Positions 6,001-64,000 of a stretch of 64,000 bases of DNA are shown in pieces. The notes under the pieces were generated by a model, which made no database searches, had not been told where the DNA came from, and worked only from the letters and a program-made list of their open reading frames with translations. Position 1 is the stretch's first letter; every line of letters begins with the position of its first letter. Position numbers and translations under genes: made by a program. The stretch lies in assembly GCA_000091205.1 (NCBI GenBank), contig AP006484.2. The stretch is one strand, 5' to 3'. This DNA is from Cyanidioschyzon merolae. Taxonomy: Eukaryota.

Positions 6001-6443
6001 GAGTCGGCACAAGTCTGGAATGCTGCACGCCGGCAGATGCTCACCGAGCAACTGCTGCGGGTATGGTTGCTACCGCCGCTGCTCGCGGAACTGCTCGAGT
6101 GTCTACGCGAGGAAGCGCGAGGTGCTTGTGCGCTCGCGGCAGTCAGCGCCCTGGAACAGCAACTCGTCATCGGTGGCGCGAGTCCCAGCAGTGCATCGAC
6201 AAACGCACATGAACCTGGTGCGTTCGGTGTCCTCTCTGGTACCGCTGCTGGTGGTGTGCTCGCGTTTGTAGTCTCCGACGAGTCCGAGTACCCGACGACA
6301 CGCTCTCGTTGGATCTTTGGTGTTGCCCTCGATGCCTACGGCCAAGTGCTGGACACGCTGCGTCTGGGTTGCCATGGCTGGCTGCCCGGCGACGAGCGGC
6401 TCTTAGGGCAACTGGTTGCAGCGCAACAGGCAAAAAGTGGTGG

Positions 6444-6477
<34 letters not shown>

Positions 6478-6919
6478 GCGGGCGCTTCAGCGTTGGAGAT
6501 GCCGCCGCAGGTGCGCTCGCGACTGGAACGCTTCCTCCAGCGTCATCCGCACCGGCAATGTGTCGCTATTGGGGTCGCTTCTGGGAGTCCTATTGGCGTG
6601 AATGCGGCAAGTCTCTGGCTCTACGAATGGATACGCGGAATAGAGCAGCGTCTCGGTAGCAGGCGTGAGCAGGCGGTTGGGCGTCAGCCGCATGTGCTGC
6701 GTATCGACGATGATGCTGCTCGCCTGTACGCGAAAACGAAGACTCTGAGCGCTTCACTCGGAGGCATGGTGCCTCCCGAGTGCGACGGTCTGCCCTTGCG
6801 ACGGGCTGTTGGTGTAGCGCGACTCTGTCAGGAACCGCTGGCGGTGTATGCAGCGATTGCAACAGAGGCATCCCTGGGTGCATTGCTGCGCCTCACTGTG
6901 CGCTGTCGTCCGCAACACC

Positions 6920-6953
<34 letters not shown>

Positions 6954-9369
6954 GATGCTGGATTCTACCCGCCGTACGGATGAAACTGGTGATACCACGG
7001 CTACGGCGGACGCTGCAGGCCATGACGCTACAAGCTGGCAGCAAGTCACGGACCCGAGTCTGCATACACAACTGGACCTTGGCCTCGATGGCATGGTGAC
7101 CTCGCCCAGTGATCGTCTGCTGGTCGTGGAACGAGCACTGCGTCATGCGGTCGCCTCACTGGGCCTCGACCTGAACCTCTTGTTGCGCTATCGTCATCTG
7201 CAACCTCTGATGGCGTTTGCGCCCGGCCTTGGGGTTCGCAAAGCATCCCTTTTCATCCAGACGCTGCGAAACCAGTTTTCCAGGGGCGCCACACGACCCC
7301 CAAGCGTCCCGTCACGTCAGGCAGTATTGCGCAGCAAGGCAGCGACTCGGCGGGTGCTCGACTCGCTCATAGCGTATCTGAGGGTTTCGAGCGGGATCCA
7401 CGGGACGACTAGCGGCGGTCCAGGCGCCACAGGCGAAGCGTCGACGACACTTCAGGGTGCTTCGGCGGCAGCGTATGCACGTGAACGACTTGCCCAGTGG
7501 AGACGACGTGCTTCCAGCGTCGATGTGTCGACCTGGCGACCACTAGACGAGACCCGCATCCACCCGGTAGACGAACCGCTGGCGATGAAGATCGTTGTGG
7601 AGTCGTTGCGGGAGCACGATCCACGGTACTGGAATGCAGAGCGTTTAGCGTCGACGCCTGCAGCGGTGTTGGTGTTGCATTTGTTGGAGCATCCCGAAGC
7701 GATCGAGGAGCTCGACTTGCCCGGCTACGCAGCGCACCTGGAACAGGCTGGACACGGTCGTAAGCGGCACATTCTATTCCTGATTGCGAATGAGTTTTAC
7801 CGACCATTTGCGGATTGGCGTCGGACGCGCTCCTCGTTACAAGGCAAAGCGCTCTTCTATGCCTGCACCGACCTGGATGAGTGCCTGTTTGGCTATGGAA
7901 CGCGGGTGCACGCCTTTGACGGACGTCCTGTAGAGCGCGGTAGCGCTTGGCGTTGTCGTGTGGTTCCCGCAACCGCCTCGGTTGCCAGCGACTGGCTTCC
8001 TGGTCGTCTGGAGGCAGCACAAGTGCCGGCAGTCTGGCGACAAGTCCGCCAGGCAGCGACATGGGGCAGCATGTGGCCTGCTTCTGTGCATGCACGGGCG
8101 GAGGAGCGCTACTTCGGAACGCCCTCGGTTGCTGCCCTGGGGCAAGTGCCGCTCTTACCGCTTCGCGTTAAGGCTGTGGACGGAGAGGCGCTCCAGGTGC
8201 AGCTCATGGCGCTGGAGCCGTTACCAGCCGAGCTTGCGTGGTTGGCGGAGCGAATGGCGCACCTGCCGGGTCGAGTGCCGCTGGAGTCGGTGTCGCGAAG
8301 CGCGCCTCCTGGTACCACCGCAGGCACTGCAGGTGTTGACGCTTTTAACACATCGAGTGCTGCTGCTGCTGCTGCTGCTGCTACGAATCATTTGTCCTCT
8401 TCGACGCTGCTATCCCAAAGAGCATCACGTGTGCTTCCCACGGGCCTGTTGCGCCATCCTGCGTACCGTGCGCTTAGTGGGCGTCAGGTGGTGCAGGAGC
8501 TTGCCCAAGCGCCGCCTGGCACCGTCTATTATCGTCCCTGTTCCCGCGATGCCCAAGCGGTATGTGCTTCGTTCAAAATCCACGACGAGGCGCCCATTGT
8601 GCACTTGGACTTGTTGGTGGTGGAGTCTGTGGGGTCCGGTTCCGGTGCGGTTGCCGGAAACGCCACTGGTGCTAGTGCTGGTGCTGCTCCTGCTGCTGCT
8701 GGTAGTGGCGAGCACGTCACACAGCAGTGGCAGCTGCGTCTGGATGCGGAGCTCTTCGACGACTTGGACGAGGTTTTTGCACGCTATATTGAACCGATTG
8801 TTCAGCTCGCCTGGAGAGCGACGCAGCATCCCAAGTTTATGCTTGTTGGTGAACACGACAACGCTGCGGCGGCTACCACGGCACTGGAAGCCTTACTACG
8901 GCAAGAGAAGGCCAAAGCTCCCAGCACCATCCCCTATCGACTCGCGTTTTGTCGACATCGTCCAGCGCATTTGGTGTTTGCGTATCTACCGGGTCGAGCG
9001 ACTGTGCTGTACGAGCCCATTACCCTCACCCCAACAGGTTACCGACTTCGTGATCAGGTGTTCTCGTCAGTTGATGACTTGGTCAGCTGGTTCAAACGCA
9101 ACTGGCAGCGTTTGTTGCGTTCGCAAACCGGACCACCGCGACAACAAGCGACAGAGGCTGATTCAGATGCGGTGCTGGCGTCACTGGGAGCAGGAGCAGT
9201 TGCCGTGGGTGCATCGGCTGGAAACCGTTACCAGAGCGAGGCCTCTGCTGCGTACGGGGCGCAAGTTGGTGTCGACCAACGGGTACCTGTTGTGGGTTCT
9301 TTGGTGCAACTCGCGCAGCGAGCCCTTGAGCGTTCCGGAGCGGGCACTGGTCGGCATGCACCGCGTTAA
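3028..9369 (+). CDS. SPT6: Transcription elongation factor SPT6 homologue (2113 aa) with large low-complexity insertions
   Basis: Single 6.3-kb ORF. The N-terminus is acidic (EIEEEEIGSDDDEDDLADF). A YqgF/Tex-like core region is present (WIFGVALDAYGQVLDT). The C-terminal tandem SH2 starts with the SPT6-typical HPAYRALSGRQVVQELAQAPPGTVYYRPCSRD (compare HPxF...SxxQAExxL...IRPSSKG). Poly-A, poly-Q (12 Q) and Ala/Ser-rich insertions account for the length. Confidence 0.8.
6918..6953 (+). repeat. (CAA)n trinucleotide microsatellite encoding the poly-Q tract inside SPT6. Nearby GCT/GCC tracts at 6448-6477 and 8357-8383 encode poly-A.
   Basis: Perfect caa x12 is visible in the sequence. Confidence 0.9.
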
Positions 9370-49918: not shown

Positions 49919-50791
49919 CTACTCTGGAGGTCTTTTCTCCAGCACCGCACATCTCCTTATATTGATAGCGGCGTTAAAGTCTCTGTTAACAAATTCCATA
50001 CGTTTCTTGCCATCATTGGTTGTACTTACTAGTGCAAGTAGTCCTCGAACTTTTGCCATCCTTTCCATTTGCTCGTCTGTCAGCGGTCCGTACTTTGCGA
50101 TTTCCTCAGGGCTCCACTGGCACTTTTCCATCTCGACCCTCTGAAGTCTACACCCCAGTTCATGGTGCGTATACGATGTTCGGAACTCATCTACGGATAT
50201 TGTAACGAAACGTCGTGCACACTCTTTGTACACCCTCGTCGTTGGAGAAGACGTATTCTCTTTCTTGGGCGCCCAGCGCCCTGCCCCATACGCTACTACG
50301 AGCCTCTGACTCTCATCCTCCTTCAAGGCGACCAACTGATTGAAAAAGTTGGCAAACGCCCGCTGTTTCCCGCCGTATAGATTCATTCGCAAACGAGCCC
50401 ACCGGGGCTTGGTATCCTCCTCCCACAGCGCATCCCAATGAGCAACACGAATTTCCATGAATTTCCGAAAAGCTTCAAAGTCCGCTCCTCGGCTCGTCAC
50501 CTCGCTCAAAGCTCCCAGGTGATCCTTCATTCCTGAATTCCAAGTCTCGATTTTCTTCCTCGCATTCATCATTCCCAATTCTCGATAGTATCTCGCTCTC
50601 GAGAACCCCAAAAGACGCATGTCTTTCTGACGCAAGTTACCGTCAATGCCATCTTCCGCACGCTTTGGTGCTGCGATGGTTATGATATTCGTGTTCCCAG
50701 GGTCCGCGCCAACGACAAAGTCGTTATCCTGCACTTTCTGTGTCCGAGGGCCCGCCTTCTTGTTTTCTACATGCTTCGCCGCGCCAACCAT
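49919..50791 (-). CDS. RuvC-nuclease segment of a TnpB/Fanzor-like protein (C-terminal 290 aa)
   Basis: RuvC-I: VVGADPGNTNIITIAAP (compare GIDxG). The pre-zinc-finger motif is SVDEFRTSYTHHELGC (compare VDPRYTSQTC in TnpB). RuvC-III: FVNRDFNAAINIRR (compare DxNAAxNI). A CTGGAG-7nt-CTCCAG hairpin at 49924-49942 overlaps the last codons. The stop codon is TAG at 49919-49921. Confidence 0.75.
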   Translation of the reverse strand: MVGAAKHVENKKAGPRTQKVQDNDFVVGADPGNTNIITIAAPKRAEDGIDGNLRQKDMRLLGFSRARYYRELGMMNARKKIETWNSGMKDHLGALSEVTSRGADFEAFRKFMEIRVAHWDALWEEDTKPRWARLRMNLYGGKQRAFANFFNQLVALKEDESQRLVVAYGAGRWAPKKENTSSPTTRVYKECARRFVTISVDEFRTSYTHHELGCRLQRVEMEKCQWSPEEIAKYGPLTDEQMERMAKVRGLLALVSTTNDGKKRMEFVNRDFNAAINIRRCAVLEKRPPE

Positions 50792-51160
50792 AAAGGCGTT
50801 ATCCTACACCTCCTGCATCACAGGATCCGCCTCCTTCTCGTGTTCACCCTTGGTCACGTTAACGACAAAGTCGTTATCTTGCACTATCTGCTTCTCAGAA
50901 CGCGCCTTGTTGTTTTCTTCATGCTCAGACAGGCCAGCGACAAGGTTGTCATCCTCCACCTCCTGCATCGCAGGACCAGCCTCCTCCTTTTCTTCATCCT
51001 TCGTCACGTCAACGACAAGGTCGTTATCCGCACCTCCTGCGTCGCAGGATCCTCCTCTTTGTTTTCTTCATCCTTCGCCACGTCAAGGACGAGGTCATTA
51101 TCCTCCACTTCCTATGTCGCAGGACCAGCCTCCTCCTTTTCTTCATCCTTTGTCACGGGC
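50700..51160 (-). repeat. Internal tandem repeat inside the Fanzor-like gene: about 6 units of 75-78 bp encoding an acidic 25-26 aa module ([25 protein letters not shown]...)
   Basis: Repeats are visible on both strands. The plus-strand ORFs 50646-51248 and 50771-51205 show reiterated DKVVILHLL and TTKSLSCT strings. The minus-strand frames give [13 protein letters not shown](M/T)QEVEDDNLV units. Confidence 0.85.
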
Positions 51161-53832
51161 GCAGCCGAGGGCGCAACTGGCCGATCTCCCTTCAACGGCC
51201 GATAGTGTATACACAAGGCTACTCCATCGGTTTCAATCATCCCGCTGAACAACTTCTGCTTGCTCACTCTCAGAGGTTTGAAATCGAAGATGCTCTTCCT
51301 GTACGTCTCCCGGTTTTTACCAGAGAATTCCTCTGTGCTAACATTGGACTCTGGACTGATCTCCTTCATGATGCCATGAAGGACGCCGGAGTTGATAGTC
51401 ACAAAATGTGACTCGATCTTGCACATTGGAACCACGTTGAAGCGCTTACCCATTAGGACAGACTTCCGTCTCTCCCACTCTTCATTTGTCTCTTCACTCA
51501 GCTTCATCTCCGCTTCGCGTTCGAGTTCACGGTCCAAAAACACAAGATACCGCAGGGAGAGGCGATAGTATTTTTCCTTATCTATTTTCAACTCTGATAC
51601 CTTTTCTGTTGGATTCACCAGCCCCAAGACTGCACGGTGCTCTTGTATAGCCGCACGGGTTACAGAAGCTTCATTCGTGCTCCCTTTTGACGTCTACTTG
51701 TCGACAAATTCGACCTCACCTTGATGCTTGCGATCTCTCGTGATGCCATTGATCATCGCCCATATTCCTTTGCGAGAGATACCTGGGTAGAGTGCAACCG
51801 CGGCGCGTACTATGAAACATTCGAGGATCACTGTCAAATGGTTCTTCAGATTCGTGAGGTACTTCATCGCTCCGTATGTGTAAATACCCTGGCCACCCTT
51901 GTATCGATTACCCTCGAAGCGGAATTCCGCGAAGTTTTCGTGGAGGCCGTCCACTAGCACATTTTCCTTCCGCGCTTCCGCTGTACCAAAGATGAGGTAA
52001 CGAAAAAAGGTCTTTTCGAAAAACTCGTCCGGAATCTCGACCGTTTCCATGTGCGTCACGTCGCGATACATCTCCCTCGCTAAATGCATCAGTCCTGACG
52101 ACGCCTCTATAATACTCTTGGAGTCCGAATCGACACGGTTTCTGATAGCGTCTCGCAAATTTTCTCTGCAGGGATCCTTGACATGTCCAAGAAGAGAGGT
52201 ATTCACAACCATCTCGTTGTACAGTCGTCTTTCTTGCAGCCTTCGACGCAGGACCTTCCCCTTTTGGGTCTTCTTCTCTTCCTTTTCTCCTGGACTCGGC
52301 ACTGTTTTTTGTTTTTTCTGGCAGCCTGCGACCCTGGGCCTCCAGGATCGTCGACTTCCTTTTCATAACTTTTCTTTTCTAGTTTTTTTAAATGAACCCT
52401 CTGTGAACGCTTCTGTTATATACTGCGAAAAATCAATCGAATATTTTCACTTGAGGGTTGAAACACAATCGAACTAAAAACTATACTTGCCTATGAAATT
52501 AACGAAAATACAACTTTTACACGAGAGCTAGACGCTAAAGATCAAGATCACGTTTCCCTTCAACGGCGGCGCGCGCGTCGTGTCTCATATCTGCCCCAAC
52601 TCTCAGGTACGCTCATCGAGCGCGATGCATGCGCTGCGCGAGACGCCTCATCGATCGATGAAGGACACGTGTCCGACACCCCGCCTTGGCATATGCGTGT
52701 TTGTATCGCGCTGCAGCTGAAGTAAAGTATCGTAGATTGGAAACTCACGTAGAGTAATCTCTTGCTATAGGCTCTGTCGCTGGTGCCGAAGCTACTGCCC
52801 ATCGCAGTACCGCCTTGACATACATGGAGATGTAGGGGCCTGGCACGATACCCCTCGACGCTTCTATCAAAAGCGTAGCGTTCTCTGCGGCTTACGCTTG
52901 TCTGGATAAGGTACGCATCACTCTAGCCTTGAAGAGTTTCGTTAGTTTTATTGATCGTAAACAAACAAGGGACGGTAGGATTCCTGAACACGGACATACG
53001 TTTAATTCCTATGCTTGTTATGCATGCCGCACGGACGCTGGAATAAGGACCTGACCTGAATTTTGCTTCTATCCCGCGTCATGGGCTAGAACCGATGATA
53101 GTTCAAGTCATTTCCATGCTATCGTCGTTGTCCAAGTTATGATGCCCGCTACGTCCCCCGGATCCGGTGGTCTCGGCAGAGGCATACCACATATGTGGCG
53201 TCCATATCTGCCACGACGTTTGAGCCTTGCATCTCGCCTGGCACGATCGAGGCATCCGGCAATAGCACATATTGTGTTCTGATCTACTCTATAAGATTGG
53301 TTTCAAGAGCCTAACCCGTACATCGAGCCCGGAAGCGACATAGCCAACAACAAATGCCTTTGAAAAGAAAAACTTTTTCGCCGGCCGTGCAGAGTAGTGG
53401 CGAGTGACCCGCCCCAGACATGACGTGTCCAACTGACGTGCAGACGCTTCCAAAATAACGTAGCGCCGGAGGAAATTCCTTTACACCTCCTCTACGTTAT
53501 TCGTCAGTGAGCTGCTGCGACGTGTCTTCACGATAATTGTGATCTCTGAACTCAGCATCGCGGAGCGCTGACCGACCAGTACTGACGAGATTGTTGCTCG
53601 GAAAACAGCGAGTTTTGCCTAGTTTCTGAGAAATACTTTCAGCGCTTGTGCGGGTTGTGCTCAAAGTTGGACAGTCCAGGGGAGATTGAGGTCGGCATCA
53701 GCACCAATGGACGGGCGATCACACGTGCAGCAACGCAAAAGATGTTTTCGACTGGATATGCACACCTACGCGAAAGACTCTAGCCGGTGACGTGATCGAC
53801 AGCTTTGCACCGGAGAAAATCTAACCGAGAAA

Positions 53833-54891
53833 ATGCAAGCTCTTTTCGTGTCTGTCCCGTTGTACCAGGAAAGACACATTGTTCGCGCGCGCGCTGCAAT
53901 TCGAGCACCGTTCCCGCTGCGTACTGCACGTGATGGGTGCTTCGCAGCTGGACATTGTCAACATTGTCAGCATCCGCTGCCCTTTGTGGTGCAGCGTTCG
54001 CCTGTAGCGCGCCGGCATCGTATGCTGCATCTTCATATGGGCCCGAAACAGTCGCAGATCGCCGTGATCACTGGCGCGTCCTCTGGGGTCGGTCTGTATG
54101 CAGCTCGCGCTCTGATCAACAAGGGCAACTTGCACGTCGTCATCGCATGTCGTGACATCGACCGGGCGGAACGCGCAGCAAACAGCGTGAACCTTCTAAA
54201 GGACGCCTATACCGTGCTGCATTGTAGTCCGGCTGATTTTGCCTTTGTACTAAAGTTTGTGAGAGAGCTATCGAGTGTGGCGCGCATCGATCACCTAGAT
54301 ACCCTGATCTGCAATGCCGCAATCTGGCATCCGCGGGACAAGAAACCGCGTTTCACGGTGGACGGCATCGAGGAAACCATGCAGGTATGCCATCTGAGCC
54401 ATTTGCTTCTATGCCGGGAGCTGTTGCCGAAGCTGAAAATATCGCGCGGGCGCATTGTGTTTCTGACAACTCAGACCCATTCGACGAATTCGCTGCCGGG
54501 AAGGATCCCCCCGCGGGCTCGCCTCGGCGATTTGTCTGGTCTAGCCGCGGGGCTTGATCCGCAGACGACTGGCATGGTAGGCAGTGGTCCGTTTGAGCCC
54601 ACAAAAGCCTACAAAGTCGCCAAAGCCGCTAGCGTGTTGACAATGAAGGCGCTTAGTGATCGATACGGCCGCGATGGGGTGACCTCTGTGACGATTTTCC
54701 CGGGATGTGTCGCCGATAGCAACCTCTACCGCGAAAAGCTTGGCTGGTTCCGCTACGTATTCTTCCCGATTCTTCAGAAGTATATCACTCGGCAATACGT
54801 TCCGAATGATGAGGCCGGCCGCCGTATAGCCGAAGTGGCGACCCAGGGACAGTTCTCGGACTCGGGCTCGTATTATCAGTGGCGTGGCTAA
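53833..54891 (+). CDS. Light-dependent protochlorophyllide oxidoreductase (LPOR)-like short-chain dehydrogenase, with a roughly 75-aa basic N-terminal extension
   Basis: VITGASSGVGLYAARALINKGNLHVVIACRD...YTVLHCSPADFAFV...LDTLICNAAIW...NSLPGRIPPRARLGDLSGLAAGLD...KAYKVAKAASVLTMKALSDRY...VTIFPGCVADSNLYREKLGWFRYVFFPILQKYITRQYVPNDEAGRRIAEV...SGSYYQW. It is collinear with plant and cyanobacterial LPOR, including the LPOR-specific loop ([25 protein letters not shown]) and [24 protein letters not shown]...SGVYWSW. The ORF stops about 40 aa short of canonical LPOR (see findings). Confidence 0.7.
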   Translation: MQALFVSVPLYQERHIVRARAAIRAPFPLRTARDGCFAAGHCQHCQHPLPFVVQRSPVARRHRMLHLHMGPKQSQIAVITGASSGVGLYAARALINKGNLHVVIACRDIDRAERAANSVNLLKDAYTVLHCSPADFAFVLKFVRELSSVARIDHLDTLICNAAIWHPRDKKPRFTVDGIEETMQVCHLSHLLLCRELLPKLKISRGRIVFLTTQTHSTNSLPGRIPPRARLGDLSGLAAGLDPQTTGMVGSGPFEPTKAYKVAKAASVLTMKALSDRYGRDGVTSVTIFPGCVADSNLYREKLGWFRYVFFPILQKYITRQYVPNDEAGRRIAEVATQGQFSDSGSYYQWRG

Positions 54892-57831: not shown

Positions 57832-60618
57832 ATGTTTCGTGCTCGCTCTCTGGTACGTGCCCTGGGAGTAGCTGTTTGTCTATTGTTGGCGGCGACGTTT
57901 TCCGTGTCGGTTGTGGCTGCGTTGTCGCCTGTGAGTACGGTTAGCTGGACCTGGATAGGTGGAGAGACGGGTATCGATAATCCTGGTAATTATGGAACGC
58001 TGAACCAGACTTCAGCAGATAGTGTTCCAGGAGGCCGTTACTATTCTGCAGCCTGGGTCGGAAGTCCAAGCTTGGTATACTTGTTTTGCGGGGTTGGGTA
58101 TGGAAACCCATTTCCGAGCTACTTTAATGATCTATGGACCTTCAACTTGACCTCACATGAATGGACGTGGATTGGAGGCTCCTTAGACATCAACAATGTA
58201 GGAGTATATGGCACAGTCGGCACAGGCAGCCCAAATAGTATACCCGGCGGCCGTTACGGAAGTGCGTATTGGCAGACGGACGAGCAGCATTTCTGGTTGT
58301 TTGGTGGCTACGGCTTTGATGTGAACGGTAATGTGGGAGACCTGAACGACATGTGGCGGTACGATACTGAAACGGGAATCTGGACGTGGTTCAGTGGGAA
58401 TGATACTATTAACGCCGATCCAGTCTATGGACCGAAGGATATCTACAGTCAAATTTACAACCCCGGAGGCCGAGATAGCGCGGCATTCTGGCTGGGCGCG
58501 GATGGTCTTTTTTGGTTGTTTGGTGGTGAGAGAAATAATGGGCTGGATTATTTGTCAGATCTCTGGTCATTCAACCCTGTTACATTCGAATGGGCATACA
58601 GAGGCGGATCACAACTTGCTAACCAGCCTGGTAACTATAGTGCACCTGGCGTGGCGAGCAACTCAAATGCTCCAGGTGCGCGCGGCTTCTCGCATACGTG
58701 GACAGATTTTGAAGGAAATCTCTGGTTGTTCGGTGGCTATGGCTACGGAAACAGCACAGCACTAGGGCAAGGGGACTTGAATGATCTCTGGGTCTACAAT
58801 ATAAGTCAATCCGTATGGATTTTTATCGCAGGGAATACAACCATCTATGTACCTGGATCATATGGAAGTCTCGGTGATTTCTCGCCAACCAGTTACCCTG
58901 GTGCAAGAGACTCAGGCGTGAGTTTCGTAGATTCATTTGGTAATCTGCAACTGTTTGGCGGTGAAATATTCAACACTACGAATGGCAACTACGTCCTTTT
59001 GAACGATCTGTGGGTGTTCAATATCAAAATTGGTCAATGGGCGTGGATCAACGGAAGTTCAGCGGTTGATTCTTTAGCAGTATATGGAGTTTTGAACGAG
59101 ACCGGCTCGAGTGTTGTACCAGGCGGACGTGAAGGACCAGCCTTATGGAACACCAGTGGAACAGATCCGGTCATGTTTGGCGGATTTGGATACTCAAACA
59201 CTAGCGGACCTGGCTATCTCAATGATGTTTTCGCACTGAGTGAAACGTTCTTTACGCCTACCTCTACGCCTACGCCAACATCAACGCCAACTCCGACATC
59301 GACCGCAACATCCTCGGTAACCGCTTCATCTACGGCTACATCTACGATAACAGCAACCGTGACCTCGACGTTCACACTGACGCCAACGCCTACATCTACT
59401 CCCGTGTGCACCAATGAGATCTGCGGTTCCCCGGGACAGTACACGAACCAGGACGCTTGCGAGCAAGTCGGATGCTGCTTCAATCCCGAGACGAACGCGT
59501 GCACCCTGAAGAGCGTCTCAGCGGCCTGCAGCGCTGTTCCAGTGACGCAGCGCGTCCCCTGCGGCTGGAGCTACATCTACCCCGACGAGTGCACTGCGAT
59601 TCCGGGATGCTGCTGGCAGCCCACAGCGAACGGCATCCTCGCGCCCTGGTGCTACTACGACATCGACCATGCACCGCAGGCTTCTGTAGCGCTGCAGGAG
59701 GTGCAGGCACCGGTGCCCGTCTGCCCATCACCGGGAGCGCATCGCCAGCCGTGCGGCAACGCGGGTATCAACCAGTTTACGTGCTATGCCCAGGGCTGCT
59801 GCTACGACTCGCAGGCGCAGAACCAGTGGGTGCAGAACGGCAAGCAGCAGAGCGACTTTGCGTCGAACCCGTACTGCTTCCAGCCCGAGAAGACGTGCGC
59901 TGTGGGCGAGTTTGAGCGCCAGCCGTGCACGAACGCGGTGAATCAGAACCAGCAGCTGAACAATAACATCAACAATAACCAGTTTGTGCGTCTGCTGAAC
60001 ACGCTTCTGTACGGGGAGCAGCACGGGACGCAGCGCACGAGCTACTCGCCGCAGCAGTGTCTGGAGGCTGGTTGCTGCCTGGGGCTCGGTAACGAGTGCT
60101 TCCAGCCGATGACCGAGTACGTGTGCCAGACCTACGGGTACGTCTCGAACTCGCTGAGCGGCACGACCGGCAACGCGTCGAACTCGAGCTATATTGCTTG
60201 CGGCCCTGAGTGCTGCAACGCCGAGACGCAGAACTGTACGTACAACCCCTTCAGCAACAACAACAACCAGCAGCAGCAGCAGCAATTGCAACAACAGCAG
60301 CAACAACAGGTGCTGCTGCCGTCGTTCTGTGTGTGCAAGGACCCTACGAAGCAGTGCGGGACGTACCTGATCCCTTCGGATAACCTTGTGAACAAGGTGC
60401 GTTGCTGCCGCGCTGACGAGGAGTGCATCAACAACCAGTGTGTGGTGATTAGTCCAACACCGACTCCGAGTCCCGTGGCTGTGACAGCGACACCCTCTGC
60501 GACGGTGTCTGCGGCGGTGTCTGCGACGGTGTCTACGACAGCTTCTGCGGCAGTGTCTGCGACGATGTCTGCGAGAGCGTCAGCATCGGTTTCGGGTTCA
60601 GCTTCAGTGTCTGCTTGA
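57832..60618 (+). CDS. Secreted multidomain protein: signal peptide, Kelch/galactose-oxidase-type beta-propeller, Thr/Pro-rich mucin-like linker, four trefoil(P-domain)-like six-cysteine modules, poly-Q/N tract, and an Ala/Ser/Val-rich tail
   Basis: The N-terminus is MFRARSLVRALGVAVCLLLAATFSVSVVAA. Kelch blades carry reiterated W-x-W-I/F-GG and GG-x(n)-NDLW-x-(Y/F) motifs (WTWIGGE, WLFGGYG, NDMWRYD, WLFGGE, NDLWVYN, ...). The linker is TPTSTPTPTSTPTPTSTATSS.... One cysteine module, C-x8-R-x2-CG-x8-C-x4-GCCW-x10-WCY (CSAVPVTQRVPCGWSYIYPDECTAIPGCCWQPTANGILAPWCYY), fits the trefoil consensus. Three further similar modules follow. Confidence 0.65.
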   Translation: MFRARSLVRALGVAVCLLLAATFSVSVVAALSPVSTVSWTWIGGETGIDNPGNYGTLNQTSADSVPGGRYYSAAWVGSPSLVYLFCGVGYGNPFPSYFNDLWTFNLTSHEWTWIGGSLDINNVGVYGTVGTGSPNSIPGGRYGSAYWQTDEQHFWLFGGYGFDVNGNVGDLNDMWRYDTETGIWTWFSGNDTINADPVYGPKDIYSQIYNPGGRDSAAFWLGADGLFWLFGGERNNGLDYLSDLWSFNPVTFEWAYRGGSQLANQPGNYSAPGVASNSNAPGARGFSHTWTDFEGNLWLFGGYGYGNSTALGQGDLNDLWVYNISQSVWIFIAGNTTIYVPGSYGSLGDFSPTSYPGARDSGVSFVDSFGNLQLFGGEIFNTTNGNYVLLNDLWVFNIKIGQWAWINGSSAVDSLAVYGVLNETGSSVVPGGREGPALWNTSGTDPVMFGGFGYSNTSGPGYLNDVFALSETFFTPTSTPTPTSTPTPTSTATSSVTASSTATSTITATVTSTFTLTPTPTSTPVCTNEICGSPGQYTNQDACEQVGCCFNPETNACTLKSVSAACSAVPVTQRVPCGWSYIYPDECTAIPGCCWQPTANGILAPWCYYDIDHAPQASVALQEVQAPVPVCPSPGAHRQPCGNAGINQFTCYAQGCCYDSQAQNQWVQNGKQQSDFASNPYCFQPEKTCAVGEFERQPCTNAVNQNQQLNNNINNNQFVRLLNTLLYGEQHGTQRTSYSPQQCLEAGCCLGLGNECFQPMTEYVCQTYGYVSNSLSGTTGNASNSSYIACGPECCNAETQNCTYNPFSNNNNQQQQQQLQQQQQQQVLLPSFCVCKDPTKQCGTYLIPSDNLVNKVRCCRADEECINNQCVVISPTPTPSPVAVTATPSATVSAAVSATVSTTASAAVSATMSARASASVSGSASVSA

Positions 60619-60745: not shown

Positions 60746-63700
60746 ATGAATGCGGCTACAGATGTGCGCGAAGAGCGCTCTGAAATCCTGCCCACGAGCC
60801 GTGATTCAGAGGCTATACACACGGAACGACGGGGCAGGAATTCTCTCTCGGAACGTAAAGGAATGATTACCTATGGGCACGAGCGCGCCTATGAATATCG
60901 CTTTTACGGCCACGTCGCTGAGTTGCAAACCTTTGCCTTCGTTGCCCTGGAAACCCGGTGCACAGGTTGCGACTAGCGAGTTTTGCTGCGACGACGCAAA
61001 CGGATGTAAGCATTGTAGGATCGATGTACTAGCTTGCAATCTGTCCACGACTAGAAGTTCCAGAGCAAGTGCGGTTCGATCCGTGCAACTGAACATTTCA
61101 CCAGCATACGGTATCCCTAGGGTAAGCGTATATATCAGTGAATCCATTTCATCTGCTGCAGCGTCGCTGGGTAAGAATGTTTCGGAGGTACTAGCCTCAC
61201 AGCGCTCGTAAAGCTCTAGAATTGAAAGTGCATGTTGCCTGCTCCAAATGCGGACGGGTCGTCTCAGAAGTTCTCAGACTCTTGCCTGCTGTCTGTTATA
61301 CAAAAAGTGTCCAAAATCGACTGTAGCGCACTGTTGGGATCAAGTCCCCGATTTGGGCTTGTTCTCGAGAAAATGACTCCAAGCAGAGGGCGCAAGTACG
61401 CTATAAGACCATGGACATGTCGCAAGCGTGCTAAATCGTAGAGGCAAGATAGAGCGCACAGCGAGATCCAGGGGGCGAATATAGCCAAAGTGAGAGTTAC
61501 CACAGCACGGCGACTAGAATTGAAGGCAACCTGAGAGCTCTCTTTCTGTAACCGTACCTATCGATTATGTGCAAGGTCGTTGCGAGATGCCCTAAGATTG
61601 AATCTACTGCTGATGAATGGAGGCTTGTCCTCCGGCTAAGGAAGAGACCAAGATACACAATATGATGTATCGACTAAAAAAGGTCTCAAGCTTCACGATT
61701 GACATAGACGCGGCTTCTTTTGTGCCATGAAGGCTATCGCAGCAATATTTTAGCAGGGCGGCCACCAACTAATAGTGTAAACGATTGAGGTGCTTTTCGC
61801 GGAAACCATCTTAATAAGCGACGCCAACCTGGATGCTGACCTGAACTAGCGAGACCCTGCAGTGCCGACCAGGATCGCTTTGAGTGTAGACGGAAGGCAA
61901 GAATAGCCGGCGCAATCGGGGCTCTTGGTTGTTGACGGTGTCTTCGTTGGTTGGCTTGGGTCGTATATGTCGAAAGAGACGGCGTGCGTTGTGCTCTGGC
62001 ACGCTTGCGAGCACCGGTGCGACGGATCTAAGATGCAACCCTAGGCAGAAAGGGTACCAGAAGTGTAATGATGATAGCCGAATGATAGTACCAGCTGTGG
62101 ACGGGCGGAGCAGCAAATTTACGCTTCATTCGTGGCGGCCATGAAGTAGGTGCTTGCAGATGTGGCGAATGGATCGCTAACGCAGTAGCTTGTCATAGTC
62201 AATAGACTTGGCATATTGAAAGTGGTCGAAAGAGCTTGTCTGTCTGCATAATGATGGTTGGAATCGTGATTTTGGATCGATAGGGGTACGCCACTAGAAA
62301 ATGAATGACCAGGCATCTTGTGCAGCGATAGCAGCCTGCCATCGAGCACAAACACAAAAACTTGGATAACAGCTTGCAGTCTGGCGATGTAAAGGAGGTT
62401 CTGGTGATGATCCAGTTCGACAGCAGATATCGAGGTATCCCAGGAAGAGGATACCGGAATCGGAGCGAGGATTCCGGATTCTCGAGAAGCGGCGGCCAGG
62501 GAGGCAGATCCAACGATGGTGATGAAGGCTTTCATGACAAGCGAATGAAAGTATACGCCTGTACTGAATGTTCATTTGTGAATTTGGGCGCCCATATTTG
62601 CTGCCACGCATTTTCCTAAGCGGTATGGTAGTGTGCGTTATCCTGCCCATGGAAAGGGTGACACAGTATGTTAACGAGTATATCCAGTCTCAAATAGAGT
62701 AGGAGCCCACGAAGCATTCGATATCTATTCCAGAGATTGGCATCTGAAGCCCGAAAGGCAAAAGATACCTGGTGGTACAGTTTGTCCCCCTTGCAGATTC
62801 CAGAGGCCTACGATGGAGATTATGTGGAAAGCGGAACACAAGCAATATGGATCATCGGTGAGTCGATGGCAGTCGATGCAATACCTGCACTAGTGCGACA
62901 TACGTAAAAGTTCCAATAGCAGCCAATGGACAACAAAGTAGTACACGCGAGTGCAGTATCGTTCCGCAGAGCACTGCAATCGTACACTGTTGCGCAGAAA
63001 CATTAAAGAGAGCGCAATGCGTTGGAGTCCATGATGAATATGAGAAGACGTTCTATACTGAATATACGCCGCGGAACGTACGACATGCTTGATATGATCC
63101 GCAACAGAAAAATGCATATGTTTAGTGCTGCAAAAAAATTTTGGTCGCAAAAACGAGCAAAGACAAAAGTGTACTGAAGCACCGAACAAAGAGATCGCCA
63201 GCTCCAGATAACGCATTGTCATAGGAAAAAAAGTCATCAAAACCGTAAAGCATGGGAGTGCTCGGAGGAGCCTGGGCTCCCCAGGCGGGCCCCAAAGCGT
63301 GCTTGGTGCAAGCCAACAGATAAACCAAAACGTACAAGCCAAATGCTGTCTTTGGCATCGCAGCCCCGGAATTAAAACAGGGCTCACACCAGGCAATGAC
63401 ATTAAAAGAAAAGAAAAATGACACAGACCGAAACCAATCGCTCCACAGCACCCTAATCGAAGAAAATTAGTGACGAGCCGTAGCCCATGGGTAAGGATAC
63501 GTAGAGCCTCGATGAAAATCAGCACAAGGACATATCACCGAACGGGAGTACAAGAAAGGCTAGATAACCAATCGTAAACAAAAACGCCCAAGAAAAGAGA
63601 ACAAGAGATACGAAAGGCGTAAGAAAACAGAATCAAGCGTGGTTATCGTGAGGCAACTGAGACATGTTGGAGTTGCACAAAATAAATACTTTGTGGGTAG

Positions 63701-64000
63701 TAACGGCAAAGGCGCAAGTAAGCTAGAGCTTTGTTTGCGGGCTCGCTACGAAATTTAGGGTCGCGTACAAACAAAGGTAAGCGTTGATTCCAAGTGACCA
63801 CTGTTGCCTATCGAATACAGCTCCAAAGTAACTGGATTGCAAGAATGCGCTAACAACTAACAAAAAATAAACCCAGAAAAGAAAAACATCGAGAAAGCAA
63901 CGCCAACGAGACTGCGGGACATTAAATTAATCAACGACAAGAATCAGCATCGCGACTTGTAGGGGTTGAAGGATATGGGGGGAATGTGGGGAATGGGGGG

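Follow-up and report, generated by a model that had tools for sequence, protein, structure and literature searches.

The window analyzed, a stretch of 64,000 nucleotides (nt) from the Cyanidioschyzon merolae contig AP006484.2, carried at 57832–60618 (+) one unbroken open reading frame (ORF) of 928 amino acids (aa) plus stop codon; no other ORF there reached 200 aa. Adding 393013 to window coordinates gave those of NC_010128.1, an offset which fitted CMB157C (431032–432576), CMB159C (441406–442737) and CMB162C (450845–453631) in the general feature format (GFF) file of the 2026 Plant Cell paper. Because this offset reproduced three genes, and because CMB162C in the GFF and the window ORF both measured 2787 nt, we identified the ORF as the coding sequence of CMB162C (BAM78954.1, “similar to trefoil factor”), a variant combining Kelch and trefoil domains (K+T). 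A preliminary description, made from the sequence letters, had placed a Kelch propeller, a linker, cysteine modules and a poly-Q tract at 57832–60618, and all of them were present there. The secreted combination of Kelch propeller, Thr/Pro linker and trefoil (P-type) modules was borne out by matches to the Pfam Kelch and Trefoil models and to sequences in the PDB.

Trefoil modules of the cysteine-rich half

The whole protein matched the Pfam Trefoil model PF00088 in three stretches (E 8e-13, 48.5 bits, gathering threshold 21 bits), and each module was also scanned alone. Module 2 (aa 566–607; 59527–59652, +; C-x10-CG-x9-C-x5-CC-x12-C) had the features of a canonical P-type trefoil. On its own it reached 45.7 bits (E 6e-12), with the model matched end to end, and its six cysteines, together with the conserved Arg, Gly and PWC Trp, were in register with TFF3 (chain 6v1c_A). 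Module 3 (aa 631–682; 59722–59877, +) reached 32.2 bits (E 9.5e-8) and matched TFF2 domain 1 in a profile search; its third loop had 24 residues, and a Tyr replaced the PWC Trp. Module 1 (aa 526–557; 59407–59502, +; C-x4-CG-x11-C-x4-CC-x7-C) was a truncated trefoil-like unit with six cysteines, and its partial match of 20.1 bits fell just short of the threshold. Module 4 (aa 689–756; 59896–60099, +) was trefoil-like but degenerate. Its 43-residue gap between Cys2 and Cys3 carried a lineage-specific N/Q-rich insert (N/Q core at 59941–59982) that was absent in Cyanidium. Alone it gave no Pfam hit, and 16.6 bits once the insert was removed.

The canonical trefoil spacing is about C-x9/10-C-x9-C-x4-CC-x10-C; strictly speaking, a trefoil is not a cystine knot. 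Module 2 had this spacing (x10, x9, x5, 0, x12) and module 3 nearly so (x9, x9, x4, 0, x24), with modules 1 (x4, x11, x4, 0, x7) and 4 (x9, x43, x4, 0, x6) deviating. Judged by sequence, the four trefoils counted in the preliminary description are two bona fide modules (2 and 3) and two degenerate ones (1 and 4). We read module 4 as a decayed trefoil because the collinear module of trefoil-only (T-only) paralogs is a canonical one.

The cysteine-rich part also extended further than described before, with 12 more cysteines, at aa 765–870, that had gone uncounted. These invariant cysteines made up module 5 (five Cys, aa 765–802; 60124–60237, +; C-x24-CG-x3-CC-x6-C) and module 6 (seven Cys, aa 833–870; 60328–60441, +), for which no match was found in Pfam or among PDB sequences. 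As the two modules jointly hold 12 cysteines, a disulfide between them may be possible. All 36 cysteines of aa 526–870 were kept in the Cyanidiococcus and Cyanidium orthologs, which are 69% and 48% identical, indicating that the architecture is not due to chance.

Against PDB sequences, a profile of modules 1–3 retrieved trefoil-domain proteins only: TFF2 (5.7e-6), TFF3 (2.6e-5), maltase-glucoamylase (MGAM), sucrase-isomaltase (SI), TFF1 and a ZP-protein trefoil. Domain searches assigned the modules to no other fold. An approximate PROSITE-like trefoil pattern, which we do not treat as a test, hit none of them. PF00088 is also part of GH31 glucosidases and ZP proteins, and an exhaustive trefoil profile search gave 180 matches, among them proteins from the cnidarians Clytia and Oculina as well as a GH31 cluster from Piromyces. 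In our searches the multi-module T unit was found only in Cyanidiales and in metagenome sequences.

The T-only subfamily comprised F1559_003412 of Cyanidiococcus, CDCA07G2138 and CDCA20G4839 of Cyanidium, and the metagenome proteins P0158, P0172 and P0205. Its members lacked a Kelch domain and were ~30% identical to the trefoil region of the K+T proteins. Modules 1–4 were collinear with those of CMB162C, with the cysteines aligned, and P0172 also had units resembling modules 5 and 6. P0158, P0172 (run SRR17651693) and P0205 were considered as T homologs from outside the Cyanidiales, but the profile search grouped them with the T-only paralogs of Cyanidium and Cyanidiococcus, and the claim of a wider distribution of the T region was dropped. 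The subfamily was also seen at 6001–7236 of a 168 kb JGI metagenome contig (Ga0453586_000028; locus L001) and in P0158, P0172 and P0308–P0310. P0205 adjoined a GH31 gene on a gene-dense, eukaryote-like metagenome contig with 52% GC.

The 2026 Plant Cell paper suggests that such proteins are putative acid-protective “mucus-like” coat factors, with trefoils convergent with the vertebrate TFFs. This would fit the activity of TFF1/2 at gastric pH and the restriction of the multi-module T region to Cyanidiales and metagenome sequences. The paper reports TFFs outside the Cyanidiophyceae only in vertebrates, a premise that fails for the domain, as the close matches in Clytia, Oculina and Piromyces GH31 show that it is not limited to vertebrates there. 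Moreover, the agreement of module 2 with TFF3 and with the full length of the Pfam model exceeds the cysteine pattern, which makes convergence on that pattern less expected. We consider this explanation unlikely.

Signal peptide, propeller, linker and tail

The N-terminus of CMB162C read MFRARSLVR, followed by a 21-residue hydrophobic stretch (mean Kyte-Doolittle hydropathy 2.36) ending in VVAA. We recognized an n-region with three Arg, an h-region (ALGVAVCLLLAATFSVSVVAA) and small residues at −3/−1, together a predicted signal peptide of about 30 residues (~aa 1–30; 57832–57921, +), whose cleavage position was inferred. Our assignment used hydropathy and charge heuristics, by which an h-region of 21 residues could in principle also be a signal anchor. 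The tables of the 2026 Plant Cell paper list CMB162C as “KTH variants: K+T, SP(Sec/SPI)” with 0 transmembrane segments (SignalP 6.0, Phobius), in agreement with the signal peptide proposed in the preliminary description. There were 15 N-x-S/T sequons in the protein, 12 of them inside the propeller.

The Kelch region spanned ~aa 37–472 (57940–59247, +). It matched PF24681 (E 1.3e-26), and Kelch_1, Kelch_3, Kelch_4 and Kelch_6 also exceeded their cut-offs. From an alignment of 45 sequences AlphaFold2 built a six-bladed propeller with a predicted local distance difference test score (pLDDT) of 94.7 and a predicted template modeling score (pTM) of 0.93. The blades were ~72 aa each, starting at W39, W111, W184, W254, W329 and W403. 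Four-stranded repeated blades, a closed propeller and Pfam Kelch matches, the marks of a Kelch β-propeller, were thus all seen. The closest structural matches were the substrate-recognition Kelch domains of LZTR1 and KLHDC2/3/10.

An enzymatic role for the propeller can be envisaged, either as a radical copper oxidase of the galactose/glyoxal-oxidase type or as a NanM-type sugar mutarotase, with the trefoils targeting a glycan substrate. Several of the matching Pfam Kelch models are named “Galactose oxidase, central domain”, the bacterial relatives are automatically named “N-acetylneuraminic acid mutarotase”, and GH31 glycosidases carry trefoil domains. Against this stand the substrate-recognition domains at the top of the structural matches, among the first 60 of which galactose oxidase did not appear. 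The domain, modeled with six blades, did not fit the combination typical of galactose and glyoxal oxidases, in which a seven-bladed propeller bears a Cu-binding Tyr-Cys cofactor site and is joined to flanking domains. CMB162C also stayed below the thresholds of the NanM/YjhT mutarotase models (NCBIfam PRK14131, Pfam PF24996): the NCBIfam N-acetylneuraminate epimerase model gave 15.7 bits against a cut-off of 416, and Pfam NANM was not reported for CMB162C and reached 31.6 against a cut-off of 45 in P0055, a paralog in which the Kelch domain is joined to a hedgehog-type Hint domain (K+Hog). An enzyme is therefore improbable. Since galactose oxidase was missing from the top 60 and the epimerase score was so far from its cut-off, the propeller is a generic six-bladed Kelch domain; of the earlier “galactose-oxidase-type Kelch”, the Kelch propeller stood, and the oxidase type is a Pfam label only.

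In bacterial species genomes, at least 566 loci from Acidobacteriota, Bacteroidota, Gammaproteobacteria, Planctomycetota and others showed 36–42% identity to the propeller along its six blades; the ranking of bacterial matches favors proteins with a double propeller. These secreted COG3055-type Kelch proteins share with CMB162C the ~72-aa blade consensus WTW..G....G.YGT......PG.R....W.D..GN.WLFGG.G......LNDLW. Unlike CMB162C, they mostly have two propellers plus surface or secretion domains (type IX secretion system tail, Big domains, dockerin), and they lack a trefoil or Hint module. One relative was seen in a metagenome-assembled genome of “Promethearchaeota” (query window 57922–59271; loci L004–L083). 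On these sequence comparisons the algal K domain may have come from bacteria, and we found no report of this in the literature; the main text of a survey of horizontal gene transfer in Cyanidiales (Rossoni 2019) does not mention Kelch. As the comparison covered bacteria and not eukaryotes at large, we put transfer from bacteria forward as a hypothesis and not as a result.

The propeller was followed by a Thr/Ser/Pro-rich linker (aa 473–525; 59248–59406, +), partly an 18-nt tandem repeat (Tandem Repeats Finder, TRF, 59253–59300), with 23 T, 10 S and 8 P among its 53 residues (41 in all). Cho 2023 described the same type of linker across the K+T family. It is presumably an O-glycosylated stalk. 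The poly-N/Q tract NNNNQQQQQQLQQQQQQQ (aa 809–826; 60256–60309, +), a CAG/CAA repeat with a 9-nt period (TRF 60252–60309), lay between Cys802 and Cys833, inside the cysteine-rich part as previously noted. In an alignment of relatives its length varied among metagenome proteins 88–97% identical, and it was absent in Cyanidium. The C-terminus was a low-complexity tail (aa 874–928; 60451–60615, +), first Pro/Thr-rich, then Ala/Ser/Val-rich, built from a 12/36-nt tandem repeat (TRF 60496–60578).

This tail had been proposed to be a glycosylphosphatidylinositol (GPI) or covalent wall-anchor signal that tethers the protein C-terminally. It does form the extreme C-terminus of a secreted protein, and its small residues could act as an omega site. 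However, a hydrophobic segment following a small-residue omega region and conserved in orthologs, as in GPI signals, was not found: hydropathy averaged 0.72 over the final 25 residues and peaked at 1.37 for any 15-mer within the final 60, compared with 2.36 for the signal-peptide core. The tail was absent in the Cyanidium ortholog (P0008), shorter in that of Cyanidiococcus, and is itself a tandem repeat. The lack of hydrophobicity makes a GPI signal unlikely, and with the other points we hold an anchoring tail to be very improbable and abandoned the proposal. The poly-Q tract, the N/Q insert of module 4 and the Ala/Ser/Val tail are, by their repeat structure and alignment, repeat expansions that are not conserved.

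Gene family, expression and chromosome end

Much of this gene is known, and CMB162C offers little new as a discovery: its architecture, position, signal peptide and life-cycle expression are already published. “Trefoil factor” and “hedgehog” genes were mapped to C. merolae chromosome ends by Nozaki 2007, and Cho 2023 described the combinations of K, T and H domains, the Thr/Pro/Ala linker, the signal peptides and the subtelomeric duplication. The arrangement had been called uncommon in the preliminary description. Across life this is so, but within the group it is a known multi-copy family: according to the 2026 Plant Cell paper, C. merolae has 15 TFF-like genes, of which 13 show a diploid bias.

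CMB162C combined a signal peptide, Kelch domain, Thr/Pro/Ala-rich linker and trefoil region in one polypeptide next to a telomere, as expected for a member of the Cyanidiales K+T family. The family includes CMA001C, CMA142C, CMD002C, CMD191C, CME001C, CMJ005C, CMR001C and others in C. merolae, CCYA04G1438 in Cyanidiococcus and CDCA06G1732 in Cyanidium. It shares with CMB162C the signal peptide, propeller, Thr/Pro/Ala-type linker, trefoil region, chromosome-end position and diploid bias; the copies differ from CMB162C only in the lengths of linker, poly-Q tract and tail. Full-length orthology was found with CCYA04G1438 (68–69% identity, 94% coverage) and with CDCA06G1732 (45–48% identity, 91% coverage). 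According to the 2026 Plant Cell paper, CMB162C reached 772, 824 and 864 transcripts per million (TPM) in diploids, 75, 66 and 68 in haploid MS1 Ha3 and 12, 15 and 13 in haploid 10D, that is, 12- to 60-fold higher expression in walled diploids than in wall-less haploids.

The K+Hog paralogs (“similar to hedgehog protein”; e.g., Cyanidiococcus CCYA03G1141 and C. merolae CMC002C) have in common with CMB162C the signal peptide, the propeller (56% identity over aa 3–472), the Thr/Pro linker and the subtelomeric site. Where CMB162C has trefoils, they carry a Hint autoprocessing domain (PF01079, E 7.8e-37). Their expression is haploid-biased, with ~2 TPM in diploids and ~225 TPM in haploids for CMC002C (2026 Plant Cell paper).

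CMB162C is the final annotated gene of chromosome 2, and ~3.4 kb separate its stop codon at 60618 from the telomere. A telomere repeat array of the AATGGGGGG type started at about 63960 and ran to the window end at 64000 (+), with an exact repeat at 63992 and one variant unit (AATGTGGGG); the last letters of the window read ...GGGGGGAATGTGGGGAATGGGGGG. According to Cho 2023 (Supplementary Dataset 2), AATGGGGGG is the telomere unit of C. merolae and Cyanidiococcus. The telomere repeat at its end shows that the window reaches the right end of chromosome 2 (NC_010128.1 ~393014–457013).

The rest of the window held intronless housekeeping genes, namely SPT6, Nog1, APS kinase, SAC1, SAHH, a gene for an alpha-amylase-family protein and Myb, and the chain SPT6, Nog1, APS kinase, SAC1, SAHH, Myb upstream of the ORF agreed with CMB144C–CMB159C in the supplement of the 2026 Plant Cell paper. 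CMD191C had been considered as the identity of the ORF, from the entry “POR,KT” at the right end of chromosome 4 (Cho 2023, Supplementary Dataset 2). It was ruled out by the chromosome 4 neighbors (glycogen phosphorylase, TAF13, Rab), which disagree with the window, and by the GFF, which points to CMB162C on chromosome 2.

Between CMB159C and CMB162C we detected an intact, unannotated ORF of 352 aa (53833–54891, +) with an adh_short match (E 1.9e-21), as expected for a copy of a gene like that of protochlorophyllide oxidoreductase (POR). Subtelomeres of C. merolae are known to carry POR copies as passengers. Among the rows listed in the GFF and expression files of the 2026 Plant Cell paper there were none for CMB160C or CMB161C. 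Farther upstream, positions 50001–52000 had strongly negative GC (−0.217) and AT (−0.172) skews and contained ORFs without a Pfam match (49919–50791, − and 51694–52302, −). This stretch is flanked by the Myb gene on one side and the POR-like ORF on the other, and falls near the position published as the start of the chromosome 2 subtelomere.

On the telomeric side, a faint Hint-like fragment was found at 61784–62005 (+). It matched the Hint domain of P0055, the K+Hog paralog, with 32% identity across 74 aa (tblastn, E 0.002), reading “SGLLVVDGVFVGWLGSY” where the paralog has “TGRLVVDGLLVSCYGTY”, and contained in-frame stops. Pfam gave no support for it, and by its sequence the fragment may be what remains of a Hog gene. 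A further ORF of 211 aa (62890–63525, −), probably not a gene, had no Pfam match; it lay within 1.1 kb of the telomere in an A-rich stretch (AT skew 0.247 over 62001–64000).

With its subtelomeric site, the repeat expansions within its coding sequence, and the POR-like ORF and Hint-like fragment nearby, CMB162C could be taken for a decaying, functionless copy, yet its ORF is intact over 928 aa, and conservation (36 cysteines and all blade motifs, across three genera) and very high regulated expression (~800 TPM in diploids) effectively refute this.

Proposed role and comparison with known systems

We propose that CMB162C, a subtelomeric member of the Cyanidiales K+T family, is probably a secreted and glycosylated surface or wall protein of the diploid, with a trefoil foot and a Kelch head. 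The protein, with its 15 sequons, would be glycosylated, its linker would serve as an O-glycosylated stalk, and it would act at the surface or wall of a diploid cell living at pH 1–2. There, the disulfide-rich trefoil array may provide an acid- and protease-stable foot for binding or cross-linking, and the propeller a ligand-binding head. Repeat slippage would account for the poly-Q tract, N/Q insert and Ala/Ser/Val tail, as by-products with no conserved role. The family to which the gene belongs is the most expanded subtelomeric family of the Cyanidiales, and shows high expression in the walled diploid phase, itself a recent discovery.

Several observations weigh against this proposal. TFF3 contacts GlcNAc-α-1,4-Gal solely via the side chains of the Asp/Asn before Cys2 and of the Trp before Cys6 (PMC7221086). 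In modules 1–4 the residue preceding Cys2 was Ile, Pro, Pro and Pro, and that preceding Cys6 was Ala, Trp, Tyr and Glu; none of the four had the complete pair, and the Trp was present in module 2 only. With the pair incomplete in every module, a lectin activity or specificity of the TFF type is unsupported in CMB162C. Module 4 of the T-only subfamily retains the pair (Asn/Asp and Trp). The AlphaFold2 model of the cysteine-rich half, from an alignment of ten sequences, was unusable (mean pLDDT 47.6), and its best Foldseek match in the PDB had an E of 3.9; a three-loop fold with disulfides 1-5, 2-4 and 3-6 is consequently predicted from sequence only. Furthermore, Cho 2023 and the 2025 nickel-stress paper call the function of the family unknown, and the latter, a transcriptome study, shows that nickel induces several family members, some of them in haploid 10D, so that the role is possibly independent of the wall.

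A broader interpretation, which we offer tentatively and regard as unlikely, joins K+T and K+Hog into one display system with interchangeable feet. The two share head and stalk and differ in C-terminal module and life-cycle phase, which suggests to us alternative ways of tethering. Both would present the same Kelch head, possibly of bacterial descent, on a glycosylated Thr/Pro stalk. In wall-less haploids the head might be tethered by Hint autoprocessing with lipid attachment, and in walled diploids by an acid-stable trefoil array binding glycans of the wall or surface. The Cyanidiales trefoils would then be true homologs of the P-type domains of animals and fungi, not convergent with them. 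Should both the propeller's affinity to bacterial proteins and the trefoil homology hold true, the family would exemplify a eukaryotic surface protein built from domains that differ in origin, and the link of the trefoil domain to acid environments would extend beyond animals.

Returning to the secreted K+T surface protein that we favor, an analogy, with no kinship in sequence or fold, can be drawn with the fungal subtelomeric adhesins FLO, EPA and ALS. These are likewise chromosome-end multigene families of secreted proteins, with an N-terminal binding domain, a repeat-variable Ser/Thr stalk and a C-terminal anchoring part. They are linked through GPI or to the wall, which is not supported for CMB162C.

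The other comparison is with TFF1–3 themselves. Unlike these, CMB162C has its trefoils behind a Kelch propeller, in an array of four modules followed by a 12-Cys unit; module 1 is truncated, module 4 carries an insertion, the Asp/Asn of the glycan-binding pair is replaced by Pro, and its Trp is kept in module 2 only. CMB162C is also not known to have a mucin partner. Like them, it has the Arg-x-x-Cys-Gly, Gly-Cys-Cys-aromatic and Pro-Trp-Cys-aromatic motifs, and its six-cysteine register aligns to TFF3. Both are secreted, as predicted for CMB162C, and both are found in an acidic extracellular setting.

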